Part shown: piece by piece, positions 1 to 25,762 of the stretch | Layout of the letters: the number at the start of each line of letters is the position of its first letter | Numbering within the stretch: the first letter of the stretch is position 1 | From: Candidatus Saccharimonadota bacterium | GTDB taxonomy: Bacteria > Patescibacteriota > Saccharimonadia > Saccharimonadales > Saccharimonadaceae | Direction: 5' to 3' | DNA: 32,000 bases | Assembly (NCBI GenBank): GCA_001029695.1 | Contig: CP011211.1 | Coordinates: 690,001 to 722,000 of the forward strand | Notes under the pieces: generated by a model | What the model saw: the letters and a program-made list of their open reading frames with translations, nothing else | Databases searched by the model: none | What the model was told of the DNA's origin: nothing | Program-made: the position numbers and the translations under genes

Positions 1-875
1 ATAGCGAATGATTTGTAGCTACGAAATAGCGCCGTATAGCCATTTGTCGGTGCTGACCAGCCAATTGCTGCTTTTGCCCCTGACTTACCTGTGCCCGCTG
101 CGCGTACTGTGAGGCTACCGCCTGCGCTGTCACCCCATATAGCGACGCGTGATGGATCTATTTTGTACATACCTGCGTTATTGATCACGTGTCGGATACC
201 GCGCATAACGTCATCGAGCTGATAATAGACACCGCTTGGACCAAGTCGGTATGTAAGTGAGAAGAATGCGTAGCCTCGAGCAGTAGCGCTTGGCTGAAGT
301 TTTTCAGCAGCTCCGTCGTTTACTCGCCAACCACCACCATGAATGTAGATAATAGCTGGTGCGCCATCGCCTGCTTGGTTGACTCCTATACGCTGGTAGT
401 CACCTTTTCCATTTACGTACTCGCCGTACTTATTGTCAGGTACTTGGTCAGGATTCTTTTTTGGCTCTTTTGATTCGCGCTCTTGGCGTTCAGCAAAAGA
501 TTCGAGAGCTTCTCGTGCTTCTTTTTCTTTTTGCTCCTTTGTTTTTTCATCCGGAGTTGTCGGTGTCGTTGGGGTCGTCGGTGTTGTCGGAGTGTTCGTA
601 GCCTTTTCTTCGGCAACTGCCGCTTCGAGACAGATCGTCTCGTGCGCCTCATTGTGTGTCTCGAGCCAGCCATCACACGCCTTTCCTGCCCAACCGTCTG
701 TACAGGCGAGTTTTTCGCTTTTTACTGTAAACTTACTACAGTATTCACCTACAGTTGAAGCTTCTGCTTGCACTTTTGGTGTAATAGCAAAAGGAGCGAT
801 TGCGGTTATGAGGGCGACGAGGGCCATAAATGTCAGTGTTGAAAATGATTTCTGAGACTTTGTTTGTATCTTCAT
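1..875 (-). CDS. secreted alpha/beta-hydrolase (esterase/lipase-like); N-terminus complete, C-terminus runs off the window
   Basis: Absent from the ORF track because it is open to the window edge. My own minus-strand translation from ATG at 875-873 gives MKIQTKSQKSFSTLTFMALVALITAIAPFAITPKVQA (signal peptide), a Cys-containing segment, a TPTTPTTPTTPTTP linker and a K/E-rich spacer. It then gives AIIYIHGGGW (HGGG oxyanion motif) and AIWGDSAGG (GxSxG nucleophile elbow). Confidence 0.7.
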   Translation of the reverse strand, partial: MKIQTKSQKSFSTLTFMALVALITAIAPFAITPKVQAEASTVGEYCSKFTVKSEKLACTDGWAGKACDGWLETHNEAHETICLEAAVAEEKATNTPTTPTTPTTPTTPDEKTKEQKEKEAREALESFAERQERESKEPKKNPDQVPDNKYGEYVNGKGDYQRIGVNQAGDGAPAIIYIHGGGWRVNDGAAEKLQPSATARGYAFFSLTYRLGPSGVYYQLDDVMRGIRHVINNAGMYKIDPSRVAIWGDSAGGSLTVRAAGTGKSGAKAAIGWSAPTNGYTALFRSYKSFA

Positions 876-999: not shown

Positions 1000-1668
1000 A
1001 TGGCAGGCGCAAAAAAGAAACAACAAAGCACTAGTAAGCGTACAGCTACGCGAAAAAAGACTTCTCTTCTTCGGAGTGATAGTTTTCGTAAAAAAGCAGT
1101 TCTTCTACTTATTGTCTTGATTGCCGTAGGTGCTATAGTCGTCTTTACATGGGTACTTCCGAAGTACAATGGCGCCAAGAGCGGTGTTGGCGCTGACGGT
1201 TTTAGTGTGTACGAAATGAAAGGCGCTGATCTTGGCGTAGCGAACAGTGTCTCAAAGGAAGATGTGCAGCGCATTCTTGGGGATCAAGTAAAGAGTGTGT
1301 CAGATGTGAAAAAATCTGGTGTGATCAACCTTAACGGTGCAAAAGGTCAGACAGCTACCTTCCCTATCGTTACCAAAGGAGATCAACAAGCGAGTTTTTA
1401 TGTTGATGTGCTTGAATACAAAAATGTCGCAGCCCTCGAAGACTCTGGCGTCACTAAGGGTACTGTCTCTGCAGGGAGAATCAATGACTCACCTGCGTAT
1501 TATATGAAATCAAATAAGCTTGGCGACCAACGAGAGACGACACTGCTCGTATCAAAAGGTTCTAAGTCATACAAATTCGTGATAGCCCAGCCGCGACAGA
1601 ATATTACCATCTCGGAGGCGGAAGGTCTCGAAAAGCTAATTGAGATTGCAAAGACTGCAAAGCTTTAA
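1000..1668 (+). CDS. hypothetical bitopic membrane protein (basic N-terminus, one TM helix, ~165-aa external domain)
   Basis: 222-aa ORF. AAGGAA Shine-Dalgarno lies 5 nt upstream of the ATG. It has a K/R-rich N-terminus, a TM helix AVLLLIVLIAVGAIVVFTWVL and a following hairpin terminator. No motif recognised. Confidence 0.6.
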   Translation: MAGAKKKQQSTSKRTATRKKTSLLRSDSFRKKAVLLLIVLIAVGAIVVFTWVLPKYNGAKSGVGADGFSVYEMKGADLGVANSVSKEDVQRILGDQVKSVSDVKKSGVINLNGAKGQTATFPIVTKGDQQASFYVDVLEYKNVAALEDSGVTKGTVSAGRINDSPAYYMKSNKLGDQRETTLLVSKGSKSYKFVIAQPRQNITISEAEGLEKLIEIAKTAKL

Positions 1669-1790: not shown

Positions 1791-4574
1791 TTACTTCGGT
1801 TCAATAAATGTACGTTGAGATGAGATATATAGGATGTCGTTGTTCTGATAGAAGCTGTCTTGCGCTTCCCGCTCTCGATCAGTCATGGTGCAATCTTCAA
1901 TATTTGCGTATGAGCCATCAACTGAACACATCATTGTGTAGGCGCGAAAATTATTCATCATTTCACTCTCTTCGAGACACTTCTTGCCTGTATACCAGTC
2001 CTGATCTTGAGCGGACCCTTCGGTGATGGACATGTAAGAGTCGACATATTTCTTATCATTTTCGCTTTTGGCATTTTCGTTACCATCAAGTGGGTAGCCG
2101 TTTACATCTGTTTTGCCGCGAATCTCTTCTTTTTCTTTTTCACTGAGCTCTTCTCGTCGCACAACCATCGCAGAACGACCCCATGGATCTTCACGGTTGA
2201 CACAATAGTCGAGGAATTTTTCGTACTCGGAGAATTTACTAGGCTTACCTGTCTTTTTATCGATAAACGGTGCGTTGCTTCCCTGTTGCGCTTCACTCAC
2301 CATTCTACTCACTTCTGCAGCGTCCCCTTCTCCATCTGTCCGCCCTAGTCTCGATTGGAGGTCACTTAACCCATCACTCGACTCGTCGGGGTGGGCTTTG
2401 CTCATATACTCAAGTACGCTATCTACTTTTGCGTCAAGTTCGGTCTTGCTCATGCTGTAGCGGACGTTGCAGGCTATGTCCGCATCGATGCCGATGCTTC
2501 GGTATTCTGCATCGGCACACTTGAGGCGTGACTCATCGAGGCTGAGCGGTTGTAGACGATAGTACGCAGAGGCTTTTTGTCCAAGTGTTGTGATTGACGA
2601 AGGTATGATCGCGAGAACATTTGAGATAGAAGATAGAAGTGGTGCGCCGCCATTGTACGTGACACCAAGCGATCGAACAACTGATCCTGTAAATGAGTAT
2701 TTGTTGTAGATATCTAATGGATTTTTCTGACCATTATCGCGTGCCACTTGGTCGATTTCGTTGAAAACTTCGTCTCCACTAGCGAGATATTGTTTTAATG
2801 ATTGCTTATCAGCTGGTCGCATACCTCGAGACATTGCCATATCGCCTAGCACTGCACCGGTACCAGCAAATAGTACGTCACTAGCTGTAGTGCCTTTTGT
2901 GTCGCTGCTAAATTTTTTCGCAGCATCCCCCGCCCATTTCGTGATAGCGTCGGCAAATATACTCGCGGCAATCGGCGTAACGACCGGATCGGTCATCCTG
3001 ACTGGAGGGAGCATGAGCCAGATGCCCTTAGGGGGGAAAGGACATATATTGTCAGATGCGGCAGCGATACCCCCTAGTGCTCCTCTGGCACCTGCAAATT
3101 CGTTTGCAGTACCGGCGGCATTTGTAAGCGCTGGGCACGATCCTGGCTTCATGGCGCTTTTGTTGCTGCTTGTTTGGCCGTCAAGGCAGTATGCTCGAGG
3201 ATTTGAGGCGATGTCATTTGGAGGTTGACGAAGGTTTCCTGGACTTCCTGTGATGCCTTTTGTAGCATCGGCATTTTTAATAATAGCGTCCCATGGTTTT
3301 TCAAGTGCGCTGATACTATCAAATACGTCCAGATTAACGCTTAGATCTTTTACCGGTTCGTTAAAGAGTATGTGTTGATACATTGTGGCGTCAGTGGCGT
3401 TTGCACCAACGTACCCACCTTGCTGGCCGTAGGCGAGCTTTCCGGAAAGAACGTTCGCAGGTACTTCATCAGCCATACCTGCCTTGATTTGGTCTGCTGC
3501 TTTTAGGTACTGCATAGCAAAGCGTGCGATTGTGTGTTCTTTTGCCGTCTTTGCGGCGTTGCTGGCTATTTTTCCTACCGTGTAATGTGCACATTGAATC
3601 TGCGTGTAAGAGTTTGCTTTACGTCCGATCTGCTGTGCTATCTGTGCGAGCTGACTTTTGACTGATCCTTCTTGCAGTGCATACAGTCCGATTCCAGCAC
3701 GTCCCGCCTCATCGAACTTTTCTTTTGAGCCTTTGAGTGATTTATCAAATGATTCATTTACTTTTTCCTCAGAATTACCTGTCACTGTCGGACTTTTTGA
3801 GAGATCAAATTTTTTCTTCAATCTGTTTTTGAATCGTTCGTCTGCATAAAAACTTGATTTACCGTTGAATACACTATTTGTCAGCTCGCGCATGGCGACA
3901 CTTTCGTTGGCTTTTTTATCAAAGTCAGCGCCGCTACTGACTGAGTCACCATTTGGAAACTTGATTGAAGAAACCTTCCAGCGACTCTCTGGCTTGTCGT
4001 TCGTGCGATCTTGATCGTCACGATTATCTTCTTCAACCTTTTCACCCTCTACTGTAAAGCCGTTCTTTTCGAAAGTAGTTTTCTGATTTCGGCTCATTGT
4101 ACTGAGCTTGCATTTGATGCTGTCTTTCTCGTCGCACTGTGCTTTGCCGATTTTGTTATCGAGCATTTTTTTGTTGTATGTGTAGAGCGCGATTGTTGCG
4201 TCGGCCAGGTCATCAGTAAACATCTCTTTTATATTTACCATGATGATATTTGGTGCAAATAAATAGAAAAACGCGATACTAAGACCAATCATACCAAAAA
4301 CAAAACCAAGTGGGCCTTTATGACGAAACGTTCCAAAACGACGCCCTCTAGCTGTGCTTGCTTTTTTTTGGCGAGGTTTCGAAACTTGCTTTACAGTGGC
4401 ATGACTATCTTCGGGTTTTTGTTCTTGTTTTTTGACGGATTCGTCTTTTTTATCAGCTTCACTAGGCTTTTTTTCTAATCGGTTTAATGTTTCACTGACG
4501 TTTGATAGTTTATCAGCATATAAGTCATCTGCTCGATCATAACTTCTGTTAGTGGGATCGTCGTCTTGAGCCAT
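1791..4574 (-). CDS. large bitopic membrane protein with ~820-aa extracytoplasmic domain (12 Cys); function unknown, co-oriented with the VirB6-like gene
   Basis: 927-aa ORF that starts 8 nt after the stop of the upstream 676-aa gene, consistent with an operon. It has a K/E/D-rich N-terminal ~85 aa, a single TM helix LGFVFGMIGLSIAFFYLFAPNIIMV and a long mixed domain. No Walker A motif, so it is not an ATPase. Confidence 0.75.
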   Translation of the reverse strand: MAQDDDPTNRSYDRADDLYADKLSNVSETLNRLEKKPSEADKKDESVKKQEQKPEDSHATVKQVSKPRQKKASTARGRRFGTFRHKGPLGFVFGMIGLSIAFFYLFAPNIIMVNIKEMFTDDLADATIALYTYNKKMLDNKIGKAQCDEKDSIKCKLSTMSRNQKTTFEKNGFTVEGEKVEEDNRDDQDRTNDKPESRWKVSSIKFPNGDSVSSGADFDKKANESVAMRELTNSVFNGKSSFYADERFKNRLKKKFDLSKSPTVTGNSEEKVNESFDKSLKGSKEKFDEAGRAGIGLYALQEGSVKSQLAQIAQQIGRKANSYTQIQCAHYTVGKIASNAAKTAKEHTIARFAMQYLKAADQIKAGMADEVPANVLSGKLAYGQQGGYVGANATDATMYQHILFNEPVKDLSVNLDVFDSISALEKPWDAIIKNADATKGITGSPGNLRQPPNDIASNPRAYCLDGQTSSNKSAMKPGSCPALTNAAGTANEFAGARGALGGIAAASDNICPFPPKGIWLMLPPVRMTDPVVTPIAASIFADAITKWAGDAAKKFSSDTKGTTASDVLFAGTGAVLGDMAMSRGMRPADKQSLKQYLASGDEVFNEIDQVARDNGQKNPLDIYNKYSFTGSVVRSLGVTYNGGAPLLSSISNVLAIIPSSITTLGQKASAYYRLQPLSLDESRLKCADAEYRSIGIDADIACNVRYSMSKTELDAKVDSVLEYMSKAHPDESSDGLSDLQSRLGRTDGEGDAAEVSRMVSEAQQGSNAPFIDKKTGKPSKFSEYEKFLDYCVNREDPWGRSAMVVRREELSEKEKEEIRGKTDVNGYPLDGNENAKSENDKKYVDSYMSITEGSAQDQDWYTGKKCLEESEMMNNFRAYTMMCSVDGSYANIEDCTMTDREREAQDSFYQNNDILYISSQRTFIEPK

Positions 4575-4581
4575 ATCTCAC

Positions 4582-6612
4582 CTACTTACTATCTTTATGG
4601 ATGAGGTCTATCGTATCATCGTCTTTTTTTTCAGTGAGCTTGAGGTCTAATGCCTTACGTGCTTCCTCTACGTCATTTGCGGCATCAAATATGTATTTTT
4701 GTGCACGAGCTTTTGCCTTTGCTTCCGAGCCACTGACAGGTACTTGATCGTGAACACCAAATTGCCCTACAGCATTTGCAGCAGTCGCTTCGCCTCCTGG
4801 TTTCTTGCCAAGAAGTGCTGATGCGTCGACTTGCACTGGTACGGCAACAATCTGCTGAACTGAATTAGTGTTCGCTTGGCCGGCGTTCTGTGTATTGATT
4901 CCTCCGGCTTGCGCCATAGATGGAGCACGGTACTCGTTTGCTTGTCCACCGTTTGGAGCCTGTCCATTGCTACCTCCTGATGACTGTTGTCCGCCAGCGG
5001 CACCAAGTGAGCGCATTTGGTCTTTTGAAGGTGGTTTTTGCTTGTTGTTGAAGTCTGTTTTCTTCTTATCGTCGTCTTTATCTTTCTTAGAAAGACTAGC
5101 CTGAATCGCGTCAGCGTCGACATTGAGTCCGTCGGCACCTTCGACTTTTGCTTGGGCCGCTTGGGCGAGCTGTGCATTATTTATTTCTTCAGCCTTTGCT
5201 TCGCTCAATCCTTGACCGAGAGCGCCAGCCGATAGTGGGTCATTTGCTGTTGATGATGCGGTAGGCATACCGGTATTTGATTTATCTGCACTAGTTCCAG
5301 GTCGGCGTAGTGCTTCGCCTGCGGGGTTGCCCGCACCTATAGCACTTCCGCCAAGGGCTGATTTTCGACGTCGACGCATAAAGGTCGGACGCTTATCAAA
5401 GTTACCGCCAGCAACAGCTGATTTTGTCGGCGGTGTTTTACCAGCCAACTTACCCATGCGTGCTTCACTTTTGTCGGATTTTCGTATACCACGGCTTGCG
5501 TCGGAAAGTTTCGATCCGGCTGACGTTGCGACGGTTGTCGCGCTTTTCATGACAAACCACACACCGAGTAGAGGCATGACAGCTGCTGCTGCTGCTGCAA
5601 GTCGAGTCATTGCACTTGTGGATGTTGAGCCGCTCTTTGTTTCATAATTGTCGTCTTCAACCTTATATCCACTATCTCCGATACTATCTATCGTTGCGCT
5701 TACGATCTGTCCTGCCCCAAGTAAGAGTGCGATGACTGGATAAATCAGAAGAAGTTGTAGTGATAGCCGGACCCACTGCTTGAAATAGTTTTCAGTATTT
5801 GGCAAAAGATACGCGACAAACATTAATGGGGAGATAAGGATAAGCATAGAGGCGACGACCTTGCGAGCGATTAATAATACCAGCGCTACCGCAGAAACCA
5901 CAGCAATTCCTGTTGTTACTATGGCTATAGGAGCGAGGAGGATCCACACGGTACCTGTTTTTGTGAGCATCGATGAGACGATCTCCGTAAGTACTCCATC
6001 TTTGAAGCCATCCTGTGCTGCAGCGAGTGACATACCGGGTGTTCCGCCAATTTGTTCAACTACTCCACTCGTTATTGAAAAGATGACACTGCCAAGAATA
6101 TTAGAGAGTTCAGCTCCCATCGCACATATATGGTAGGACAGGTTGACAAAGATTGCGCCTAATATTAAACGTGGCAACATTCGCTTGATACTATAGCCTC
6201 CGGAATTTTTACCAGTTACTTGTGAGTAAATGATTATAAGAAATACAAGAACGAAGACGATATTTGCGATGTTACGCATGACTTCCCATGCCTTGTAGGT
6301 TCCACTCTGGGTGTTTGTGAGACTGTAGTCGATCTCAAGAAAAGTTTTGTTGATGAATGCAAAGCCGTAATCGCCCATGCGTGCAATAGTACGTAGAGTC
6401 GGACATATCACCCATCCCACCATCTCTATGGAGCAGGTTGATACACCCGCGCTATAGTTTGATGTATTGACGGGCTGTGCAGATGAAGTGTTTGCGTTGA
6501 GGACTGAAAAACTTAGAGTAAGAACGCTAAAAATAGCTAGCGTAAACAGCATAACGCGCCTGCGCTGTTGTTTTGCGGCTGTAGCCACCCCTATTAGCCA
6601 TCGGATTACCAT
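4582..6612 (-). CDS. VirB6/TrbL-like polytopic membrane protein with ~300-aa low-complexity C-terminal tail
   Basis: 676-aa ORF with a signal-like N-terminus (alternative start at M21: MLFTLAIFSVLTLSFSVLNA). It has at least 5-6 hydrophobic helices in residues ~110-370, matching TrbL/VirB6-type topology. An A/G/Q/K/N/S-rich tail follows. The family call is from topology and context only, not from a search. Confidence 0.55.
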   Translation of the reverse strand: MVIRWLIGVATAAKQQRRRVMLFTLAIFSVLTLSFSVLNANTSSAQPVNTSNYSAGVSTCSIEMVGWVICPTLRTIARMGDYGFAFINKTFLEIDYSLTNTQSGTYKAWEVMRNIANIVFVLVFLIIIYSQVTGKNSGGYSIKRMLPRLILGAIFVNLSYHICAMGAELSNILGSVIFSITSGVVEQIGGTPGMSLAAAQDGFKDGVLTEIVSSMLTKTGTVWILLAPIAIVTTGIAVVSAVALVLLIARKVVASMLILISPLMFVAYLLPNTENYFKQWVRLSLQLLLIYPVIALLLGAGQIVSATIDSIGDSGYKVEDDNYETKSGSTSTSAMTRLAAAAAAVMPLLGVWFVMKSATTVATSAGSKLSDASRGIRKSDKSEARMGKLAGKTPPTKSAVAGGNFDKRPTFMRRRRKSALGGSAIGAGNPAGEALRRPGTSADKSNTGMPTASSTANDPLSAGALGQGLSEAKAEEINNAQLAQAAQAKVEGADGLNVDADAIQASLSKKDKDDDKKKTDFNNKQKPPSKDQMRSLGAAGGQQSSGGSNGQAPNGGQANEYRAPSMAQAGGINTQNAGQANTNSVQQIVAVPVQVDASALLGKKPGGEATAANAVGQFGVHDQVPVSGSEAKAKARAQKYIFDAANDVEEARKALDLKLTEKKDDDTIDLIHKDSK

Positions 6613-6694
6613 AACTACTATAAAGTATCGTTTATAGCGACGCGACTGTCAATGATATAGCACTCCGTTTTCAGATAGTGTACGATGAGTATAT

Positions 6695-7261
6695 ATGATC
6701 AAAAAAAGCACACACTTTTCTTTTTTACGAACAATAATTATCGCTAGTTTTATTGTTACTGGTCTCGCACTGTTTCAGAGCAGCTCTCCTGTTTCTGCTG
6801 TTGGTGTCTGTCCTGGCGGTGAGATTGTTGGCTCAGCAAGTACGCCTGGCGCGACTGACCTCGCAAAATGCTATAAAGTAAAATCTGTCACCAATGGTGT
6901 CGCTACGTACGAAGCGACTACATCAAAGCCGACGGTCGACTCCACCACTCCGCCTACTGGAGGTACCACTCAGGGAGAGTGTGCAGGTGTCAAAACCTCT
7001 TTTATAAGCTGTAAAGGTCAAGGCGCTGAGGCGGTTGGCGGTGTGTTGAAGCAGATTATCCTGATCGTAAGTATTGGTGTCGGTATCGTTGCAGTGGGCG
7101 GTATTGTGTATGGCTCTTTGTTATATACAAGCGCTCGTGATAGTCAAGCGCAGACGCAAAAGGCAATTACGATCATCAGTAGTGTCGTTATTGGGTTGCT
7201 TCTCTATGTATTTATGACTGCGATACTCAACTGGCTTATTCCAGGTGGTGTGTTTAGCTAA
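6695..7261 (+). CDS. pilin-array member P1: secreted protein with 4-Cys ectodomain and C-terminal double-TM module (subtype A)
   Basis: 188 aa with a signal peptide (...SSSPVSA). The C-terminus CAGVKTSFISCKGQGAEAVGGVLKQIILIVSIGVGIVAVGGIVYGSLLYTSARDSQAQTQKAITIISSVVIGLLLYVFMTAILNWLIPGGVFS aligns along its length with the P2 C-terminus. Confidence 0.7.
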   Translation: MIKKSTHFSFLRTIIIASFIVTGLALFQSSSPVSAVGVCPGGEIVGSASTPGATDLAKCYKVKSVTNGVATYEATTSKPTVDSTTPPTGGTTQGECAGVKTSFISCKGQGAEAVGGVLKQIILIVSIGVGIVAVGGIVYGSLLYTSARDSQAQTQKAITIISSVVIGLLLYVFMTAILNWLIPGGVFS

Positions 7262-7312
7262 TAGTTAACTGCTTGTGTTTACTGTTCTCGTAATGTATTT
7301 TATGTAGTAGGT

Positions 7313-8461
7313 ATGAACATAAAACAAAAAATATTATTTCCTGTCTTATTCCTGGTTCTAAGTTTCTCGACGGCGATCTTTTACGATGTCAGTACAACGT
7401 ACGCATGGTGTGATAATTTGAATGCTAGTACAAAGGATCAATGTGTTTATGATAATTATGATAATCTCGATGATAAGCGTGGAGTTGATCAAACTAAGTA
7501 TTTAGAGTGGGTAAACGGCTGCTTCGGTACTAATACGGGTGGCCTGATTTCTGATAAGGCTGATGGCGGTGAATGTGCCAATGCAGTAACAAACTGCATG
7601 AGATACGCTGTAAATTTAGACAAATGTGGAGATAATGAGCAGACCGCAAAGTGGGCTAGTGATAATTGTAATGGTGGTCGCGGAACATCTGGGTCACCGT
7701 CCTGTGCAACAGGGGTGAATCAAAGTGAATTTACGGATAAAGACAAGAGTATTGTCGATAAGGCTGTTCAAAATTGTACGCAAAATCAAGGTCAACAGCA
7801 AAAAAATCTGGAAGACTGTAAAAAAAGTGTCGAGCAATCCGTAAAAGCCTGCAAAGAAAAGCAAGGTATTACTTCGCCACTTAGCTATAGCGATCGTAAT
7901 AAACTCGATATTAATGCTTATCAAAAATGCATCAACGATGGCATGCTCTCCTCATCTAAAGATCAGGCAGAGTGTGAAGGGAGGGGTGGTGTTTGGAACG
8001 GTACAATAGGTCCAGTTTCTGGTAGCCGATGCGCCGCCCCGCCAACGCCCGCTGCCACGTGTGCCGACGGAAGTAAGCCTGGAGCAGATGGCAAATGTGC
8101 GGATGGAAGTACACCAGGAAAAAAAACAGCCGAGCAGCCGAGTGGATCGTATAAAGGCACGCAAACTCAAAACTGCGGAAAAGCGCAGACGAACATCCTG
8201 AGTTGTGATAAAGATAGTAGCGGAAGCGAAGTTATTGGATATATACTGAAAGCTATCTTGATGATTATGAGTGTTGGGGTTGGAATTCTCGCGGTCGGCG
8301 GTATTGTATACGGTGCTATTCTCTACTCTAGTGCTCAGGACAATGCAGCGCAGACGAAAAAAGCAATTGAGGTTATAATAAATACTGTTATCGGATTATT
8401 GCTATATATATTTATGTATTCGATTCTAAATTGGCTTGTACCAGGAGGAGTATTTCTGTAA
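7313..8461 (+). CDS. pilin-array member P2: secreted protein with ~300-aa, 18-Cys ectodomain fused to double-TM module (subtype A)
   Basis: 382 aa with a signal peptide and 18 cysteines in an N/D/K/Q-rich ectodomain. The C-terminus is CGKAQTNILSCDKDSSGSEVIGYILKAILMIMSVGVGILAVGGIVYGAILYSSAQDNAAQTKKAIEVIINTVIGLLLYIFMYSILNWLVPGGVFL. Confidence 0.7.
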   Translation: MNIKQKILFPVLFLVLSFSTAIFYDVSTTYAWCDNLNASTKDQCVYDNYDNLDDKRGVDQTKYLEWVNGCFGTNTGGLISDKADGGECANAVTNCMRYAVNLDKCGDNEQTAKWASDNCNGGRGTSGSPSCATGVNQSEFTDKDKSIVDKAVQNCTQNQGQQQKNLEDCKKSVEQSVKACKEKQGITSPLSYSDRNKLDINAYQKCINDGMLSSSKDQAECEGRGGVWNGTIGPVSGSRCAAPPTPAATCADGSKPGADGKCADGSTPGKKTAEQPSGSYKGTQTQNCGKAQTNILSCDKDSSGSEVIGYILKAILMIMSVGVGILAVGGIVYGAILYSSAQDNAAQTKKAIEVIINTVIGLLLYIFMYSILNWLVPGGVFL

Positions 8462-8949
8462 TGCGCATCGCACTACCTATAAAAATAAGAAGGGCTATTG
8501 TAGTATCTATATTTACTATGGCTCTCGCGGTGACATCGCTTGCGCCGATTACCACCCCTGCAGTTGCCGCACAGAATCAACCGGCGGGTGGCCAGCAGAC
8601 AGCTCAGGATAAGTGTAAACGAGGTAGTTTCCTTGCTTTTCCTCGCTGGTACGATGGGCTTTGTGAGAATGGTAAGATTAAACCCATCTCTAACACAAAT
8701 GCAACTGGTGCTGGTAGCTTGGGTAGTATGATATGGACGATTGTGCTTAATATTATCGCCATAATGCTCTATGTAGTAGGTTATGTATCTCTCGGATTTA
8801 TTATCTGGGGAGGGATTAAGTTTGTGATCTCTGGAGATAATGCCAATGGTGTCGCCTCTGCACGAAAGACTATACTTAACGCGGTTATTGGACTTGTGAT
8901 CTCGATCATGTCGACAGCCATAGTCAATGTAATAGCGGGAACATTTTAA
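8461..8949 (+). CDS. pilin-array member P3: VirB2/TrbC-like double-TM small secreted protein (subtype B, divergent)
   Basis: In-frame ATG at 8461 overlaps the P2 stop (TAATG), and I prefer it to the track start at 8431. It has a signal peptide ending ...PAVAA and 2 Cys. The C-terminal module is WGGIKFVISGDNANGVASARKTILNAVIGLVISIMSTAIVNVIAGTF. Confidence 0.7.
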   Translation: MRIALPIKIRRAIVVSIFTMALAVTSLAPITTPAVAAQNQPAGGQQTAQDKCKRGSFLAFPRWYDGLCENGKIKPISNTNATGAGSLGSMIWTIVLNIIAIMLYVVGYVSLGFIIWGGIKFVISGDNANGVASARKTILNAVIGLVISIMSTAIVNVIAGTF

Positions 8950-8954
8950 CTAAT

Positions 8955-9350
8955 ATGAATATGATTTTTCAAGGCTTTTCACAAACACCATCGGCACAGA
9001 TCACTATCAGCCCCGATGAAATTAAGGCACCCGTAAACCAGCTTGATGAAGCATCGCTTGGTTTGCTCTTAAATACCGTTTACTTATGGGTTGGGATTAT
9101 TGCAGTTATTGTGATTATCATCGCAGGTATTCGCTACACGACAAGCGGGGGCGACCCTGCACGGGTGAAGGCTGCTAAAAACACAATTCTCTACGCAGTT
9201 GTAGGGCTTGTGGTTGTAATTATGGCTGCTGCGATTACTCAGTTTGTGATTCAGGGTGCTACTAGTGGTGGTACGGGTGGCTCAAATGCAGCGAATCAGC
9301 AGCAAAACCCAGCAGGGGGCGGTACTACCCCTCCGGCATCAGGTAATTAA
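8955..9350 (+). CDS. pilin-array member P4: double-TM module protein without obvious signal peptide, G/T/N/Q/P-rich C-terminal extension
   Basis: 131 aa. The module is VGIIAVIVIIIAGIRYTTSGGDPARVKAAKNTILYAVVGLVVVIMAAAITQFVIQG. It is followed by ATSGGTGGSNAANQQQNPAGGGTTPPASGN. Confidence 0.65.
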   Translation: MNMIFQGFSQTPSAQITISPDEIKAPVNQLDEASLGLLLNTVYLWVGIIAVIVIIIAGIRYTTSGGDPARVKAAKNTILYAVVGLVVVIMAAAITQFVIQGATSGGTGGSNAANQQQNPAGGGTTPPASGN

Positions 9351-9382
9351 TGATATATTGACTATGAAAGGCGAAATAAAAA

Positions 9383-9760
9383 ATGAATCAATTTAAAAAG
9401 ATAATGACCGCAACGCTTATTACACTTGGGTTGGCTGGAATTACCACACTAACACTAGTTGATAGTGCATCTGCTGTTGAAGTGTTTCAGGGGTGTAGCG
9501 GAGGAAATTCATCCGTAGTGTGTAACTCAAAGGGCGATAACGCTCAAACGATCATCAAGAATGTCATAAACACGATTTTGGTCGTACTAGGTATGATCGC
9601 TGTGATCATGATCATCATTGGCGGTATCCGCTACACGACGAGTAACGGTGACTCGGGTTCGGTCAAAAGCGCAAAAGATACTATTCTCTACTCTGTCGTT
9701 GGGTTGGTAGTTGCCATACTGTCATTTGCAATTGTTAATTTTGTAGTAGGAAGATTTTAA
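9383..9760 (+). CDS. pilin-array member P5: VirB2/TrbC-like T4SS-pilin-type protein (subtype B)
   Basis: 125 aa with a signal peptide ending SASA and a CSGGNSSVVC pair. The module is LGMIAVIMIIIGGIRYTTSNGDSGSVKSAKDTILYSVVGLVVAILSFAIVNFVVGRF. Confidence 0.75.
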   Translation: MNQFKKIMTATLITLGLAGITTLTLVDSASAVEVFQGCSGGNSSVVCNSKGDNAQTIIKNVINTILVVLGMIAVIMIIIGGIRYTTSNGDSGSVKSAKDTILYSVVGLVVAILSFAIVNFVVGRF

Positions 9761-9777
9761 AAGGAGTTAATTATTAT

Positions 9778-10161
9778 ATGAAGAATCTAAAACTAGGACT
9801 TATCTCTGTGATGGCTATTGTAGGAGTTGCTTTTGCGACCCCACTGCTCGTCGTTTCAACTGTCGGTGCCGAAGGTCCAGCGGATGCGATAGGAGAGGGT
9901 GCAAAGAAAGTCGGAGGCGACAACGCTGGTATGTCTCTTGAAGACGGGATTAAGAACGTTGTTAACGTGCTTCTTTTCCTTCTTGGAGCGATTGCTGTGA
10001 TCATGATCATCATTGGCGGTATCCGTTATGCGACAAGCAATGGCGACTCGGGCGCGATTAAGGGTGCAAAAGATACGATCCTCTATGCGGTTATTGGACT
10101 GATCGTAGCTATTCTCGCCTATGCAATCGTCAACTTTGTCGTTGGTGCATTTGCGAAGTAA
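9778..10161 (+). CDS. pilin-array member P6: VirB2/TrbC-like T4SS-pilin-type protein (subtype B)
   Basis: 127 aa, with AAGGAG upstream and a signal peptide ending TVGA. The module is LGAIAVIMIIIGGIRYATSNGDSGAIKGAKDTILYAVIGLIVAILAYAIVNFVVGAFAK. Confidence 0.75.
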   Translation: MKNLKLGLISVMAIVGVAFATPLLVVSTVGAEGPADAIGEGAKKVGGDNAGMSLEDGIKNVVNVLLFLLGAIAVIMIIIGGIRYATSNGDSGAIKGAKDTILYAVIGLIVAILAYAIVNFVVGAFAK

Positions 10162-10234
10162 GCTATTAACAAACCGACCCGTATCTGCTATAACATAAGT
10201 AGGACAATTCCATAAGAAAGGAACTATAAAAATA

Positions 10235-10663
10235 ATGAAAAAAAATATCAAACAACTGCTAGCTGGCGCACTTCTTCTACCAGTTATGGTGCTTGGAGCG
10301 AGCTTTTTCACAACAGCACTTCAACCAGCACCTGCAGTACACGCAGCATTTGAAAAAGGCATGATGGATGGCGCTAACTCAGCTCAAGGTAAGAACCAGC
10401 AGGGTGATGCCGCAACTCTCTTTGGTGAAGGTGGCGAAGGTGGTATTTTCCGTACTATCACAAACGTGCTCCTCTTCCTTATCGGTGCGATCAGTGTGAT
10501 CATGCTTATTGTTGGTGGTATTCGCTACGTTGTATCTGGTGGTGATCAGTCAGCTGTTCAAGGTGCCAAGAACACAATTCTCTACGCGATTGTTGGTGTG
10601 GTTGTAGCTATCCTAGCTTTTGCCGTCGTCAACTTCGTTATCACAAGCTTCTCAAATTCATAA
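10235..10663 (+). CDS. pilin-array member P7: VirB2/TrbC-like T4SS-pilin-type protein (subtype B)
   Basis: 142 aa with a signal peptide ending AVHA. The module is IGAISVIMLIVGGIRYVVSGGDQSAVQGAKNTILYAIVGVVVAILAFAVVNFVITSFSNS. A strong terminator follows. Confidence 0.75.
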   Translation: MKKNIKQLLAGALLLPVMVLGASFFTTALQPAPAVHAAFEKGMMDGANSAQGKNQQGDAATLFGEGGEGGIFRTITNVLLFLIGAISVIMLIVGGIRYVVSGGDQSAVQGAKNTILYAIVGVVVAILAFAVVNFVITSFSNS

Positions 10664-10682
10664 TTGAGTAGTAGCATTTACA

Positions 10683-10713
10683 CTACCCTGTCATGACAGC
10701 AGGGTAGTTTTTT
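10683..10713 (+). terminator. intrinsic terminator closing the pilin array
   Basis: Stem CTACCCTG / CAGGGTAG (8 bp) followed by TTTTTT. Confidence 0.7.
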
Positions 10714-10762
10714 GTTTGCTGTGACCTTGGTATTACGCCTAGGTCATATTTATTGAGCACTA

Positions 10763-10816: not shown

Positions 10817-11278
10817 CTAAAGTACTTGGATCTTTTTTGCTTGCTCTTGCTTCACCTTACTAAAGCTGATGGTGAGGACGCCGTCTTTGAGGACTGCTTC
10901 AACTTCATCTTCTTTTACAGCTACAGGAAGTGCAAGCGTGCGGCTGAACTCACCCCAGAAACATTCTTGGATGTGCCAGTTTGTTGCACTGCTGTCGTCA
11001 CCACTACTTAGCGTACCGCTAATAGTAAGGATGCCGTCGCTGATGCTAACATCAAGCTCTTCTTTGTTTACACCAGCAGTACGTGCTTTGACAACGAGCT
11101 TTTCTTCAGTCTCATATACATCAACAGCAAGCTGTCCTGGAAATTCATCTTCAGCGGAATCTGTTTCATCAACAGCTGGAGTATGGGGTGCTTGTACTTG
11201 AGATAGGTCATCATCGTTCAAGAACGCTGCTGCCAACTCATCTTCGATCAATAGATCATCGTTTTGCTTTCGGGCCAT
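10817..11278 (-). CDS. small heat-shock protein, Hsp20/alpha-crystallin family
   Basis: Alpha-crystallin-domain pattern: LAVDVYETEEKLVVKARTAGVNKEELDVSISDGILTISG ... FSRTLALPVAVKEDEVEAVLKDGVLTISFSK. I moved the start to ATG at 11278 (MARKQ...), which has GGAGG 5 nt upstream. The track GTG at 11290 overlaps that SD. Confidence 0.85.
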   Translation of the reverse strand: MARKQNDDLLIEDELAAAFLNDDDLSQVQAPHTPAVDETDSAEDEFPGQLAVDVYETEEKLVVKARTAGVNKEELDVSISDGILTISGTLSSGDDSSATNWHIQECFWGEFSRTLALPVAVKEDEVEAVLKDGVLTISFSKVKQEQAKKIQVL

Positions 11279-11385
11279 GGTAACCTCCACTTTTCTCTTG
11301 GCTCACTTGACAAATAGTCTTCTACAGTATAACCAATATATGCAGTATAATCAATAAAATAGCATAGCTAAACGTAAAAAGTACA

Positions 11386-12054
11386 ATGATAGATGACATA
11401 TTATCACTCATAGCCCCTCACTACTGTTTTGGATGCACAAAAGTAGGGGTAGTTTTATGTCAAAATTGTAAATATAACATCATATCTGAGCCGTATCGAC
11501 GATGCATAAACTGTGCAGTTCCCATAACGACAAACAGAGGAGTATGCTTGCGTTGTAAACTACCCTACTCTCGTGCCTGGTGTATCGGGGAGAGAAATGG
11601 TGAGCTGGAGTCATTACTTAACGCGTATAAATTTAGCAATGTACGTGCAGTGTATAAGGCGTTTGCTGATCTTCTCGACTCATCGCTTTCAAACCTTCCT
11701 TCTTCGGTGTATGTCGTTCCAGTTCCTACTATTACTACTCATATACGACAACGTGGCTATGATCATACTGCATTGATTGCAAAAGAGTTTGCCCGTAAGC
11801 GTAAACTGACGTACTTACCGTGTCTTGGGAGAAAGACTAATACGGTACAGCGAGGTAAAGGGCGTGGCGAGCGTATCAAGCAGGCGAAGACCGCGTTTAC
11901 ATGTCAGGCTCAGCTTGATGACAGTGGTGTTTATCTATTGATTGATGACGTAGTGACGACAGGCGCAACCGTACGATATAGTGCAAAAGCATTAAAAGCC
12001 GCGGGCGCTAAAGATGTATGGGTGGCATCAATTAGTCGTCAACCTCTCGACTGA
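11386..12054 (+). CDS. comFC: ComF-family protein (ComFC-type phosphoribosyltransferase-fold competence protein)
   Basis: N-terminal 4-Cys zinc-finger pattern (CFGC ... CQNC, then CINC ... CLRC). C-terminal PRTase motif VYLLIDDVVTTGATV. Confidence 0.8.
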   Translation: MIDDILSLIAPHYCFGCTKVGVVLCQNCKYNIISEPYRRCINCAVPITTNRGVCLRCKLPYSRAWCIGERNGELESLLNAYKFSNVRAVYKAFADLLDSSLSNLPSSVYVVPVPTITTHIRQRGYDHTALIAKEFARKRKLTYLPCLGRKTNTVQRGKGRGERIKQAKTAFTCQAQLDDSGVYLLIDDVVTTGATVRYSAKALKAAGAKDVWVASISRQPLD

Positions 12055-12096
12055 ATGCCTATAATCTGGTACCATGGTTTTCGTACACTTACACAT

Positions 12097-12186
12097 GGAG
12101 AGGTGCCCGAGTGGTTGAAGGGAACGGTCTTGAAAACCGTCGAGCCGGCAACGGTTCCGAGAGTTCGAATCTCTCTCTCTCCGCCA
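12097..12186 (+). tRNA. tRNA-Ser (anticodon UGA), CCA encoded
   Basis: Cloverleaf folded by hand. Acceptor GGAGAGG/TCTCTCC, anticodon stem ACGGT/ACCGT with loop CTTGAAA, long variable arm, T-arm GAGAG-TTCGAAT-CTCTC, 3' GCCA. Confidence 0.9.
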
Positions 12187-12283: not shown

Positions 12284-15055
12284 ATGAAAATATCCTCTCC
12301 ATCAAACGAGGCGTATCGTCTCTCTGTCGACGACGCACTAAACCAATATCAGACAACAGAAAAAGGTCTCGGTGTCATGCGAGCTGGTCAACTGTTTGAG
12401 GAAAATGGCCCAAATGCGCTCATTGCCCTTAAGTCTGAGCCGTTGTGGCGTCGTTACCTGCGTCAATTCCAGGACTGGATGATTCTCTTACTGCTTGCGA
12501 GTGGTGCTATATCTGCATACCTCGGTGATATACGTACAGCAGCGGTTCTCGCGGCATTAGTCTTATTTAACACTATCATAGGCTTTATGCAGGAGTACCG
12601 AGCCGAGCGAACGATGCAAGCACTTGAGAAACTCGTTCAGCCGCTTGCTGAGGTATATCGCGACGGAACACTGACAGAAGAAGAATCTCGACGGCTGGTC
12701 GTGGGAGATGTGATTCGTCTCACTGAAGGCGATAGCGTACCTGCGGACGTAAGGCTTATCGAGGTTTCTGCATTTTCAACCAACGACTTTGCGCTGACGG
12801 GCGAAAGTAACCCAACACGTAAGTTTGTCCACGCAATTGGCGGTACGGTTCCTATGGCGAACCGTCATAATCTCGCATATATGGGCACAACCGTAGCAAC
12901 TGGCGAGGCCTACGGCCTTGTGATCGCCACTGGTATGGATACGGAGCTTGGCCGTATTGCGAGCCTTAGTCAGGAGGCACCTCACGATATTAGCCCGTTG
13001 CAGCGGGAAATGCGTCACATAGCCACGTACGTGACATATGGCGTCGTTATTTTGTCACTTATCTTGTTGATCGTGGCTATTTATGCGGATCTTCCACTTA
13101 AAGAGGCGCTACTCTTCGCGGTTGGGTTTGCAAGTGCGCTCATTCCACAAGGCTTACCTGCCGAAGTAAACACTTCCTTGGCGCAGGCTGCAGGCAAGCT
13201 ATCTCGGGCAAAGGCGTTAGTTAAGAAGTTGAGTGCCGTGGAGACGCTTGGCGCGACGCACATTATCTGTACAGACAAGACAGGGACGCTGACGAAGAAT
13301 GAAATGACTGTCGAGAGTATTATCGTCGGCGATCAGGCGTACGACATATCAGGGACTGGCTATCAACCAAAGGGAGCTGTTGAACGAAGAGGCCGACAGA
13401 TAAGTGAAAAAGAATTAGCACAACTCCAAGACTTTTTTCGTATAGGCCTGTACGCCAGCAATGCTAAGATTCTCGCTCCTGATCAGCACTCTGAGAAATG
13501 GTATTGTCTTGGTGATCCAACCGAAGGTGCATTAATCACCCTTGCTGCAAAAGCAGGCCTTGTCACCGAGGATGAGTTGGCGAGGCGTGTTGAGATTCGA
13601 GAATTGCCGTTTGACTCGAGTCGAAAACGCATGACGTCTATCCGTGATCACGGCCATCGGGCGATCGCGTACGTAAAAGGTGCTCCCGAAAATATCCTTG
13701 AGCGCGCTACGCATATTTACGAGAACGGTGCCGCACGAGCTATAACCGACAAGGATAAGCAGCGTTTTCTCGATGAGCATACGGCGCGTGCGGGTCGTGC
13801 ACTTCGAAATCTTGCCTTTGCCACACGCGAGCTGACGCTTGATCAGGCAAAGCACCTTGCTCTCGACGATGTCGAATCGCGCCTCACGCTCGTAGGTATG
13901 GTGAGTATGATTGATCCTATTCGCGAAGCAGTGCCAGCTGCTATGCGAGCCGCCCGCCAAGCTCACATCAAGGTAAATATCGTGACGGGTGATTTTGCAC
14001 TTACGGCTATGGCGATAGCGAAGCAGGCGGATTTGGTTGCAGATGAAAGCGAGCTAACTGTCGTAACTGGTGAGCAGCTTAATACTATGACTGACGATGA
14101 GGTTCTGAAGCAAACGACAAAGGGTGGTACGATTTTTAGTCGTGTCAGTCCAGAAGATAAGATGCGTATCGTAGGGCTCGTGCAGTCATCTGGGCAGGTT
14201 GTTGCTGTAACTGGTGACGGTATAAATGACGCCCCTGCTCTAAAGCGAGCCGACATTGGCGTAGCGATGGGTATTACGGGGACGGATGTGGCTAAGCAGT
14301 CTGCCGAAGTGATCCTTCTCGATGACAGTTTTAGTACGCTTGTGCGAGCAATTCGCCAAGGGCGTACTATTTTTGCCAACATCAAAAAAGGCGTGTTGAG
14401 TTGTTTTACCTCAAATGCTGCTGAGCTTGTCGTCAATATCGGTAGTCTTGTTTTACTGAGCGTCGCGGGTATTCCGCTTTCGATTAATGTCTTGCAGCTT
14501 CTAGCTATCGATCTTCTCGCAGAGCTCTTCCCTATTGCGGCGCTTGGATGGGACAAGGAAGAGGGTGAAACTATGAAGCAAAAGCCGCGTGATCCAAAAG
14601 CTCATATCCTTAATCGTCGAAGTATCCTTGATATCTTGTGGTGTGGCCTTGTGATCGGTGGCTTGGCACTCCTTAATTACCTATGGTTCTTCGATCGTCA
14701 TGGGGTCAATCCTCAAGATGCCGCTACAGACCTTCTATATAGCGCTACTACTATGACGTATGTGACGATTGTATTCTGTCAGTTGGTAAATATCGCTCAG
14801 CGACGCAGCGTCCATGGTCTTTTCACGAGGTATCAACTATCAAACCGCTATTTCTGGATTGCAGTACTCTTCTCGATTGGAGTGGTGCTCGCCATTACAT
14901 ACGTGCCATTTGTCAGTCAGTTCTTTAAGAGTGGTCCAATAGGGCTTATCGACTGGGCATTTATCGGAGCGGCGATGTTGATCTTCCTTGGTGTTCGGGA
15001 AGTGCAGCGTTTATGGGGTGAATTTCGTCGAAAAGATGTCGTAGAAGCTGTCTAA
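12284..15055 (+). CDS. cation-translocating P-type ATPase (P2/SERCA-like architecture; ion specificity unresolved)
   Basis: 923 aa. Motifs read: LTGES (actuator TGES), ICTDKTGTLT (phosphorylation site), VKGAPE, VTGD, VAVTGDGINDAPALKRADIGVAMG. M4 reads IPQGLPAE. Confidence 0.9.
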   Translation: MKISSPSNEAYRLSVDDALNQYQTTEKGLGVMRAGQLFEENGPNALIALKSEPLWRRYLRQFQDWMILLLLASGAISAYLGDIRTAAVLAALVLFNTIIGFMQEYRAERTMQALEKLVQPLAEVYRDGTLTEEESRRLVVGDVIRLTEGDSVPADVRLIEVSAFSTNDFALTGESNPTRKFVHAIGGTVPMANRHNLAYMGTTVATGEAYGLVIATGMDTELGRIASLSQEAPHDISPLQREMRHIATYVTYGVVILSLILLIVAIYADLPLKEALLFAVGFASALIPQGLPAEVNTSLAQAAGKLSRAKALVKKLSAVETLGATHIICTDKTGTLTKNEMTVESIIVGDQAYDISGTGYQPKGAVERRGRQISEKELAQLQDFFRIGLYASNAKILAPDQHSEKWYCLGDPTEGALITLAAKAGLVTEDELARRVEIRELPFDSSRKRMTSIRDHGHRAIAYVKGAPENILERATHIYENGAARAITDKDKQRFLDEHTARAGRALRNLAFATRELTLDQAKHLALDDVESRLTLVGMVSMIDPIREAVPAAMRAARQAHIKVNIVTGDFALTAMAIAKQADLVADESELTVVTGEQLNTMTDDEVLKQTTKGGTIFSRVSPEDKMRIVGLVQSSGQVVAVTGDGINDAPALKRADIGVAMGITGTDVAKQSAEVILLDDSFSTLVRAIRQGRTIFANIKKGVLSCFTSNAAELVVNIGSLVLLSVAGIPLSINVLQLLAIDLLAELFPIAALGWDKEEGETMKQKPRDPKAHILNRRSILDILWCGLVIGGLALLNYLWFFDRHGVNPQDAATDLLYSATTMTYVTIVFCQLVNIAQRRSVHGLFTRYQLSNRYFWIAVLFSIGVVLAITYVPFVSQFFKSGPIGLIDWAFIGAAMLIFLGVREVQRLWGEFRRKDVVEAV

Positions 15056-15459
15056 ACGTTTGTTCCACCACCGCTGGTGCCGCTAAACGAAGAGATGACA
15101 AATTCAATTGCCGCATAAGCAAGTATTGCGACGATAAGTCCTACGATTGCATATAAGATAGTGTTTTTTGCTGACTGCACGGCACTTGAATCTCCGCCAG
15201 AGATAACGTAGCGGAGACCACCGATAATAATCATTACCACACTCAGTGCGCCGATGAGAAAGAGGAGGACGTCAGTGACGGTCTTAAACACACCCGCTTC
15301 GCCGAAGAGGTCAGCTACTTGGTCGGCACCCTTTGCTGCTTGGGCTCCTTCGCTCATACCTATGTCTAGGTTTGCTGCGTGGGTGGATGCTACGAAAAAG
15401 AGTGTCGCGGCTGAAATGGCGACGAGATAGGCGACGGAGATTTGTACGATCTGCTTCAT
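15052..15459 (-). CDS. pilin paralog P8: VirB2/TrbC-like T4SS-pilin-type protein (subtype B), detached from the array
   Basis: 135 aa with a signal peptide ending STHA. The module is IGALSVVMIIIGGLRYVISGGDSSAVQSAKNTILYAIVGLIVAILAYAAIEFVISSF. It is closest to P7. Its stop codon overlaps the ATPase stop by 4 nt, with the two genes convergent. Confidence 0.75.
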   Translation of the reverse strand: MKQIVQISVAYLVAISAATLFFVASTHAANLDIGMSEGAQAAKGADQVADLFGEAGVFKTVTDVLLFLIGALSVVMIIIGGLRYVISGGDSSAVQSAKNTILYAIVGLIVAILAYAAIEFVISSFSGTSGGGTNV

Positions 15460-15638: not shown

Positions 15639-15731
15639 GGAGGAGTACCCAAGTGGCTTAAGGGGACGGTTTGCTAAATCGTTAGTCTGGGGAGACCTGG
15701 AGCGGGAGTTCGAATCTCCCCTCCTCCGCCA
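15639..15731 (+). tRNA. tRNA-Ser (anticodon GCU), CCA encoded
   Basis: Acceptor GGAGGAG..CTCCTCC, anticodon stem ACGGT/ATCGT with loop TTGCTAA, long variable arm, T-arm GGGAG-TTCGAAT-CTCCC, 3' GCCA. Confidence 0.9.
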
Positions 15732-25715: not shown

Positions 25716-25762
25716 AAACGTAAGGTTTATTTAGAAATAAAAATATGGAGAGGATTAATCGT

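Follow-up and report, generated by a model that had tools for sequence, protein, structure and literature searches.

Type IV secretion systems (T4SSs) accompanied by arrays of small pilin-like proteins are already known from Saccharibacteria. A VirB4/VirB6/VirB2 region with an array of four to six small Sec-signal proteins was reported across the group in 2020 (McLean 2020, PMC7427843). The system was found essential by transposon sequencing (Tn-seq) in 2023 (Wang 2023, PMC10633639), surveyed in 2025 (Quinonero-Coronel 2025, PMC12102498) and presented as a recognised T4SS class in a review of December 2025. The DNA described here is a stretch of 32,000 nt from contig CP011211.1 of a Candidatus Saccharimonadota bacterium, herein called the window. 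Near its left end, a minus-strand pair encoding a VirB6-like protein (VirB6a) and a large ectoprotein (p927) diverges from seven genes for VirB2-like pilins (A1 to A7). The region very probably corresponds to the pilin-side half of the Saccharibacteria T4SS, a chromosomal and vertically inherited monoderm system derived from the MPF-FATA (mating-pair formation, FATA) class that has acquired VirB2-like pilins and for which a heteromeric pilus serving host interaction is proposed. An earlier reading of the same DNA (the original prediction) had called this composition poorly described, which the publications of 2020–2025 contradict.

In Southlakia epibionticum ML1, the T4SS locus SEML1_0006-0019 is essential for epibiotic growth by Tn-seq, and according to the gene table all T4SS genes except SEML1_0012, including six pilins, are essential at later time points (PMC10633639). 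The ML1 order is a lysozyme/CHAP protein, a 1113-aa protein with a C-terminal peptidase fold, VirB4, a 293-aa protein, PrgI, a VirB6-like protein, an NTF2-like protein, VirB6 and six divergent pilins, followed by Hsp20, ComF and tRNA-Ser (SEML1_0020-0022; PMC10633639). The present locus shares with ML1 the hydrolase-bearing large protein, VirB4, the 293-aa TrsD-like protein, PrgI, two VirB6-like proteins, the divergent pilin array and the Hsp20, ComF and tRNA-Ser flank; neither cluster contains a relaxase or a type IV coupling protein (T4CP). The two differ in the number of pilins (six in ML1, seven and an orphan eighth here) and in the size of the VirB6 proteins (1088 and 998 aa in ML1, 676 and 705 aa here). 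In addition, p927, p222, an α/β-hydrolase and p343 lie between the two VirB6 genes here and not in ML1, the protein encoded after VirB4 carries an M23 domain here as opposed to a DD-peptidase-like domain in ML1, and the NTF2-like gene of ML1 was not recognised here by sequence-family searches.

Across Patescibacteria, 441 VirB2 arrays of 2–11 genes were counted in 383 assemblies, and 1135 of 1948 assemblies have a pilin gene in the vicinity of virB4; relaxases occur in only 103 genomes and most T4SS clusters are without one (PMC12102498). Like these arrays and the "Sec-secreted array" of TM7x (PMC7427843), the present one consists of tandem, divergent PF18895/PF04956 pilins near virB4, an arrangement abundant in Saccharimonadia. 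Identity within arrays is low, averaging 25% in PMC12102498 and ranging from 23 to 71% in the hairpin domain here. Whereas array variation was suggested in that survey to help adaptation to host strains, the position-specific orthologues found here argue for fixed and distinct roles.

Two other groups of T4SS are also among the closest counterparts. The Gram-positive MPF-FATA systems (pCF10 Prg, pIP501, ICEBs1) likewise combine PrgI/VirB3, VirB4, a VirB6-like protein of the PrgH class and a membrane-anchored multidomain cell-wall hydrolase, and have no outer-membrane core components. The hydrolase PrgK of pCF10, for instance, contains LytM/M23, SLT and CHAP domains. However, VirB2-like pilins are absent from MPF-FATA systems, which require a relaxase and a T4CP, whereas the present locus has seven pilins plus one, shows neither of the two in the region examined, and is chromosomal and vertically inherited. 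The Gram-negative VirB/Trw systems, in which VirB2 is placed on a VirB6 platform, resemble it in that hairpin pilins and a VirB6-like polytopic protein are encoded side by side. In contrast to them, the present locus has no recognisable VirB5, VirB7, VirB9, VirB10 or VirB11, and has multiple pilin paralogues, some with large Cys-rich ectodomains, in a monoderm envelope.

The pilin array

The identification of the small array proteins as VirB2-like pilins is supported by profile matches and by their common architecture. With a gathering cut-off of 26.6 bits, the Pfam family PF18895 (T4SS_pilin) is reached by A3 (30.3 bits), A4 (44.6), A5 (49.2, E 5.6e-13), A6 (43.9), A7 (37.2) and the orphan pilin P8 (34.2). 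A4 (40.1 bits) and A5 (43 bits) also pass NCBIfam NF045849, "pilin-like conjugal transfer protein". TrbC/VirB2 (PF04956, cut-off 27.9 bits) is not reached by A4 (23.5 bits), A5 (21.3) or A6 (23.8), and by these scores the array pilins are related to that family at clan level only. More than 1990 homologues of A5 were found, and PF18895 is present in all of the 120 listed.

By hydropathy and alignment, the C termini of A1 to A7 and P8 consist of a pair of hydrophobic helices and, between them, a short polar, basic loop with the sequence GGIRY..S.GD......AK. The longer motif N(V/I)LLFLxGxxxVIMIIxGGIRYxxSxGDxxxxxxAK(N/D)TILYAxxGLxVAIL is clear in A4 to A7 and P8, whereas A3 has a looser version and A1 and A2 retain only vestiges of it. 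A signal-like N terminus, ending in AxA-like sites as read by eye, precedes the hairpin in P8 and in six of the seven array proteins. A4 is the exception; in this genome it has instead a Gly/Asn/Gln/Pro-rich C-terminal tail, and signal-less short open reading frames (ORFs) of about 95–150 codons occupy array position 4 in L005, L008, L010 and other loci as well. A3 has a signal-like N terminus and two transmembrane (TM) segments.

A1 and A2 are 43% identical to each other and form a subgroup of their own with Cys-rich N-terminal ectodomains. A1 combines a signal-like N terminus with a 4-Cys ectodomain and a hairpin that aligns with the other pilins, and it was recovered together with its orthologues by the pilin hidden Markov model (HMM). 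A2 contains a signal-like N terminus, a 280-aa ectodomain with 18 cysteines and a VirB2-like hairpin, and is a candidate tip or adhesin subunit; the arrays keep a long, Cys-rich pilin ORF at the end nearest VirB6. P8 lies 4.4 kb from the array with A7 as its closest relative in the alignment, and at least six loci share such an A7-like pilin beyond ComF.

The AlphaFold2 model of A5 (predicted local distance difference test, pLDDT, 78.7) shows a signal helix and a hairpin formed by H54-86 and H91-124. Compared with the PDB by Foldseek, the model gives non-specific helical hits with a best E of 1.2, hairpins being poorly distinguishable, and a phmmer search of a pilin against PDB sequences returned nothing relevant.

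The paralogues were compared along the 72-residue hairpin domain in 12 genomes with seven array genes. Hairpins at the same position are 52–93% identical between genomes (93% for position 7, 80% for 6, 71% for 5, 63% for 3 and 61% for 4), whereas paralogues at different positions within one genome share the 23–71% given above. In 742 of 913 comparisons, the best match in another genome occupied the corresponding array position; for positions 3, 6 and 7 it always did. By this measure the seven pilins are ancient, position-tied orthologues. Therefore, they are probably distinct, non-redundant subunits of a heteromeric structure, which fits the essentiality of each ML1 pilin. A7, whose hairpin is the most conserved between species, is a candidate major subunit. 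A recent tandem duplication or antigenic variation of the array was considered and rejected on the position-specific orthology.

Much of this had been foreseen in the original prediction. The seven same-strand genes from 6695 to 10663 are borne out by the ORF map, and the measured gaps from A1 to A7 (51, -1, 5, 32, 17 and 73 nt, the A3 ATG overlapping the A2 stop by 1 nt) agree with its range from a 1-nt overlap to 73 nt. The strong terminator that it placed at the array end is found as a hairpin at 10682..10708 with a 10-bp stem containing five GC pairs, followed by the tail TTTTTTGTTTG. Its PF18895 accession was correct, with 30–49 bits for five of the seven array proteins and P8, and the two hydrophobic helices with a polar loop that it ascribed to every array protein are seen in all seven and in P8. 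The shared motif that it gave is found as well. One statement has to be narrowed: the signal peptide preceding the hairpin holds for all but A4. Its coordinates for the minus-strand pair stand, but the two genes, which diverge from the array across 82 nt, are 7 and not 8 nt apart.

VirB6a, the ectoprotein p927 and the off-window genes

VirB6a reaches PF04610 (TrbL/VirB6) with 26.3 bits against a cut-off of 25.9 (E 7.6e-6, residues 171-314), a marginal match, and contains seven to eight hydrophobic segments followed by a low-complexity, hydrophilic C-terminal tail of 320 aa. At least five TM helices are expected of the family. A precomputed match to PF19590 (TrbL_3) is also recorded, and VirB6a is 35% identical (E 2e-53) to a second VirB6-like protein of the same cluster, VirB6b. 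Its sole PDB sequence match, TrwI of R388 (7o3v), is not significant (E 2.1), and no PHROG match was found. Together, these features support the assignment of the 676-aa protein as an extended VirB6/TrbL-like polytopic membrane protein, in line with the topology first ascribed to it.

Beyond the left edge of the window, the cluster extends further on the strand that carries VirB6a and p927. The genes there were read on DNUC01000001.1, a Saccharibacteria metagenome-assembled genome to which the window is identical (0 mismatches over 11,668 nt), and on an ENA scaffold of 182 kb. From left to right, the full cluster comprises, on the minus strand, the 975-aa M23 protein (p975), VirB4, the TrsD-like protein, PrgI/VirB3, p177, VirB6b, p343 and the α/β-hydrolase; then p222 (plus), p927 and VirB6a (minus), the seven pilins with their terminator (plus), and Hsp20, ComF and tRNA-Ser. 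VirB4 has intact Walker A (AKSGSGKS) and Walker B (MLIVDE) motifs and ends 6.4 kb beyond the window edge. The observation that 32 kb contain no VirB4 or Walker-A protein is thus literally true for VirB4, but the missing ATPase is an artefact of the window edge, VirB4 being encoded just outside in the same cluster. The label of the 293-aa TrsD-like protein comes from a precomputed match to PF26593 ("TraC-like") only. The sole other match of this protein is a weak one to the PHROG terminase large subunit (E 2.9e-4), which is consistent with a degenerate VirB4/ATPase-N-terminal-like fold. PHROG searches gave no match for p222, A2, p343, p177 or VirB6b.

p927 consists of a disordered cytoplasmic N terminus of about 85 aa, one TM segment (approximately residues 87–110) and a mostly helical ectodomain of 815 aa. 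Its 12 cysteines are all invariant across 45 homologues, and it is always paired with VirB6a. The AlphaFold2 model is confident and mostly helical (pLDDT 80.3, predicted template modelling score 0.81). Foldseek retrieved nothing under E 0.1 from the PDB and BFVD (TM-scores < 0.1), and the nominal best viral fold matches, tape-measure proteins, are not significant. The family profile has no match among PDB sequences, Pfam none on 45 family members and PHROGs none on p927 itself. Its description as a bitopic, Cys-containing ectoprotein of no known fold therefore stands after searches of PDB, BFVD and Pfam.

What p927 resembles is found within the T4SS itself. Its membrane-proximal region aligns with the N terminus of p975 from the same genome (28% identity, E 2e-10), and over most of its length it aligns in two segments (E 8e-28 and 2e-16) with the 849-aa protein encoded after VirB4 in locus L040. 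A profile search of 1.84 billion representatives yielded 942 relatives, 353 of them at E <= 1e-30. In 40 distant relatives, Exo_endo_phos (EEP) domains occur 21 times, Peptidase_M23 13 times, CHAP five times, NlpC/P60 four times, GH43 twice, and Amidase_3 and VanY once each. These hydrolase domains are C-terminal to the p927-like module in the five members whose coordinates were checked (for example, EEP at 788-1050 and M23 at 1099-1195). Because it is homologous to p975 and the L040 post-VirB4 protein, and hydrolases occur in its relatives, p927 is, as judged by homology, a paralogue of the T4SS protein whose gene follows virB4, the cell-wall-hydrolase carrier, but has no hydrolase domain itself. 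We take this carrier to be the functional counterpart of the PrgK/CwlT-type VirB1 proteins of Gram-positive systems. The alternative that p927 is a split or fused part of the long ML1 VirB6 protein SEML1_0013 was rejected on its own TM anchor and its homology to the post-VirB4 class.

Among the remote relatives, the combination of a p927-like module with Exo_endo_phos and Peptidase_M23 is common (P0256, P0274, P0297 and P0315); an EEP nuclease/phosphatase-type domain on a T4SS-associated ectoprotein was not found mentioned in the literature. One p927 homologue, P0074, is labelled "iviTM7" in GenBank, and no paper explaining the name was found.

Conservation and genomic surroundings

A scan of GTDB species representatives for the p927 family returned 37 loci, all from Saccharibacteria, in which synteny was read by phmmer and the pilin-domain HMM within 10-kb flanks. 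Wherever these flanks reach, the order ComF, Hsp20, pilin array, VirB6a, p927, p222, hydrolase, (p343), VirB6b, (p177), PrgI, TrsD-like, VirB4 is kept. Complete arrays give six to eight pilin matches per locus, including the separate A7-like copy beyond ComF, and VirB4 is present wherever the flank is long enough, except in four divergent loci. The chromosomal position between housekeeping genes is the same in at least 25 Saccharibacteria species, and the GC content of the locus is uniform with that of its flanks, whose genes are of the housekeeping type. The original prediction had made a T4SS depend on co-conservation of these genes with VirB4, and the order kept over 37 loci favours such a system.

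In the four divergent loci (L029-L032), the VirB6a–p927 pair is kept and adjoins a gene for a ClpB-like AAA+ protein, with no pilins or VirB4 within 10 kb (e.g., L029 5143..12661). Therefore, the pair is separable from the rest of the T4SS. In L040 and L041, a p927-like gene directly follows VirB4 and precedes those of a phage-lysozyme protein and a PEGA protein, which is the ML1 order.

The α/β-hydrolase (BD-FAE, 81.9 bits in Pfam), whose full gene is seen on L001 and L042, occupies this place in about 30 related loci and is hence a conserved cluster member. p222 lies on the strand opposite to the surrounding cluster, with position and orientation kept in about 30 loci, and has no Pfam match. 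The spacer between VirB6a and the array holds one weak minus-strand promoter-like site (6652..6624, TTGACA-17-GATACT); such sites are not above chance in the region (21, against 21.4 in shuffled sequence). The coordinates of all features are collected in Table 1.

Table 1. Features of the T4SS cluster, inside the window and to the left of its first position
Feature	Position	Strand	Basis
p975, 975-aa protein after virB4	off-window	-	Peptidase_M23
VirB4, 632 aa	-8300..-6402 (window-equivalent)	-	P-loop_TraG 99.9 bits, AAA_10, DUF87
TrsD-like protein, 293 aa	off-window (L042 2602..3483)		same length and position as SEML1_0009
PrgI/VirB3	off-window, cluster	-	Pfam PrgI 47 bits
p177, 177 aa	off-window	-	
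VirB6b, 705 aa, second VirB6-like protein	off-window	-	35% identical to VirB6a
p343, 343 aa	off-window	-	
α/β-hydrolase, N-terminal part (BD-FAE / Peptidase_S9-like)	1..875	-	470-aa gene truncated at window edge
p222, 222-aa bitopic protein, K/R-rich N terminus, one TM	1000..1668	+	ORF
p927	1791..4574	-	927-aa ORF
VirB6a	4582..6612	-	676-aa ORF, PF04610
Divergent intergenic spacer between VirB6a and pilin array, 82 nt, presumed promoters	6613..6694		ORF map
A1, 188 aa, putative VirB2-like pilin, divergent subtype	6695..7261	+	C-terminal hairpin, pilin HMM
A2, 382 aa, putative VirB2-like pilin	7313..8461	+	C-terminal hairpin
A3, 162 aa, putative VirB2-like pilin	8461..8949	+	PF18895; start is ATG at 8461
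A4, 131 aa, VirB2-like hairpin protein	8955..9350	+	PF18895, NF045849
A5, 125 aa, putative VirB2-like pilin	9383..9760	+	PF18895, NF045849
A6, 127 aa, putative VirB2-like pilin	9778..10161	+	PF18895
A7, 142 aa, putative VirB2-like pilin	10235..10663	+	PF18895, between-genome identity
Intrinsic-terminator-like hairpin and T-run	10682..10718	+	array end
Conserved flank: Hsp20 (-), ComF-like (+), tRNA-Ser (+)	10817..12186		Pfam, tRNA, ML1 gene table, synteny
P8, putative orphan eighth VirB2-like pilin	15052..15459	-	PF18895, alignment

Several neighbouring genes were noted as well. Four tRNA genes (12097..12186, 15639..15731, 18529..18605 and 19067..19156), three for tRNA-Ser (tga, gct, cga) and one for tRNA-Arg, lie within 7 kb, the first tRNA-Ser directly after ComF as in S. 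epibionticum ML1. The minus strand encodes two type IV pilus-type pilins (N_methyl, PF07963) at 15899..16414 and 16530..17060, 440 nt from P8, so that pilins of two unrelated filament systems stand side by side. Amid housekeeping genes at 25745..27562 (+) lies a 605-aa protein with a pectate-lyase-like β-helix (PF12708) and a DUF5907 repeat, an architecture resembling that of a tailspike or surface adhesin. Branched or cross-bridged peptidoglycan is suggested by two FemAB-family genes and one Mur-ligase gene (23613..24557, minus; 30199..31239, minus; 28904..30193, plus), all of which lie in the right half of the window.

Proposed function and competing explanations

As a Saccharibacteria T4SS with acquired pilins, the machine may work as follows. 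The pilins would be inserted by Sec into the membrane as helical hairpins with the basic loop in the cytoplasm, and VirB4 would then power their extraction and their polymerisation on a VirB6/VirB3 platform. The product would be a short pilus or conduit leading through the cell wall toward the host bacterium, with A7 as the putative major subunit and the Cys-rich A1 and A2 as possible tip or adhesin subunits. The M23-bearing p975 would open the peptidoglycan, and p927, paired with VirB6a, could serve as a disulfide-stabilised extracellular scaffold. Filament formation itself we infer from family membership only.

Host interaction or protein export, and not conjugation, is the most likely role of the system, because no relaxase, T4CP or integrase was found in about 41 kb, because its chromosomal context is fixed and its GC content uniform, and because of the ML1 genetics. 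The negative result refers to relaxase, coupling protein (VirD4/TcpA), integrase and repeat boundaries, and covers those proteins of the window and of the cluster beyond it that were scanned with Pfam. The original prediction had likewise preferred a host-contact system over a plasmid conjugation module, in agreement with PMC10633639 and PMC12102498.

The competing explanation that survives best, though we consider it improbable, is a conjugative element (an integrative and conjugative element or an integrated plasmid) with its relaxase and coupling protein elsewhere, the pilins then forming a mating pilus for DNA transfer. VirB2, VirB3, VirB4, VirB6 and the cell-wall hydrolase are all known from conjugation machinery, the DNA-uptake protein ComF is encoded next to the array, and VirD4 homologues lie far from virB4 in many Patescibacteria (PMC12102498). 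None of the missing components or repeat boundaries turns up in the 41 kb, however, and the cluster has the same position amid housekeeping genes, with uniform GC content, in the at least 25 species named above. Moreover, the T4SS is essential in ML1, whereas comEC and the T4CP homologue are non-essential there.

Still less probable is that the small proteins are effector or toxin subunits exported via the T4SS, as in the ptx/ptl system of pertussis—an idea first proposed for the TM7x array from its signal peptides and its location beside T4SS genes (McLean 2020, PMC7427843). Signal-like N termini in six of the seven proteins accord with it. Against it, every member ends in a two-helix hydrophobic hairpin that matches the T4SS_pilin family, no toxin or enzyme domain such as the ADP-ribosyltransferase S1 was found in the array proteins by Pfam and NCBIfam, identity to Ptx S1 is only about 11% in PMC7427843, and later papers re-annotated the array proteins as pilins. 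That they are small membrane proteins of another role (holin-like or membrane-remodelling) with a merely generic likeness to VirB2 is very improbable: hairpins are low-information folds with non-specific Foldseek matches, PF04956 stays at 21–24 bits under its cut-off of 27.9 and many weak matches to unrelated hydrophobic domains of unknown function occur, but PF18895 reaches 49 bits (E 5.6e-13), two proteins exceed the NF045849 cut-off, the array proteins are strictly linked to VirB6, VirB3 and VirB4 in Saccharibacteria, and a pilin gene lies near virB4 in the 1135 Patescibacteria assemblies counted in PMC12102498.

Several points weigh against a pilus-forming, non-conjugative T4SS. A1 and A2 stay under the PF18895 cut-off with 18.6 and 19.4 bits, A4 has no N-terminal hydrophobic, signal-like segment by hydropathy, and no VirB2 or TraA structure came up when the A5 model was searched against the PDB with Foldseek. 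VirB6a exceeds its TrbL cut-off by only 0.4 bits, and the PF26593 match of the 293-aa protein was not reproduced in the Pfam scan. The exclusion of T4CP and relaxase extends over about 41 kb only, which matters in view of the distant VirD4 homologues of other Patescibacteria. Finally, no pilus or channel has been seen in the literature for any Patescibacterial T4SS; in the Mycosynbacter cryo-electron tomography paper, the T4SS appears only in the reference list.

A bolder extension of the proposal, which we put forward as tentative and rather unlikely, concerns the machine as a whole. Herein, the seven position-specific pilins, two of them Cys-rich and one signal-less, would build an ordered heteromeric appendage, and the p927 family would provide the Patescibacterial T4SS with a conserved extracellular module bearing interchangeable hydrolases (EEP nuclease/phosphatase-type, M23, CHAP, NlpC/P60, GH43, amidase). 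The machine would then be a device for breaching the host envelope and scavenging nutrients instead of a translocator of DNA or effectors, and the pair p927 and VirB6a would represent a structural duplicate of p975 and VirB6b that lacks the hydrolase.

Few machines are demonstrably required for epibiotic life in the candidate phyla radiation, and the Saccharibacteria T4SS is among them; its biology is hence important, while the present locus adds no new kind of system. What it adds is a second VirB6 with a large-ectoprotein module in the clusters of environmental Saccharibacteria, and a family of large ectoproteins that numbers about 940 sequence clusters and in which the C-terminal hydrolases are swappable. 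In addition, its old and ordered pilin paralogues argue for a heteromeric structure, as opposed to antigenic or host-range variation.

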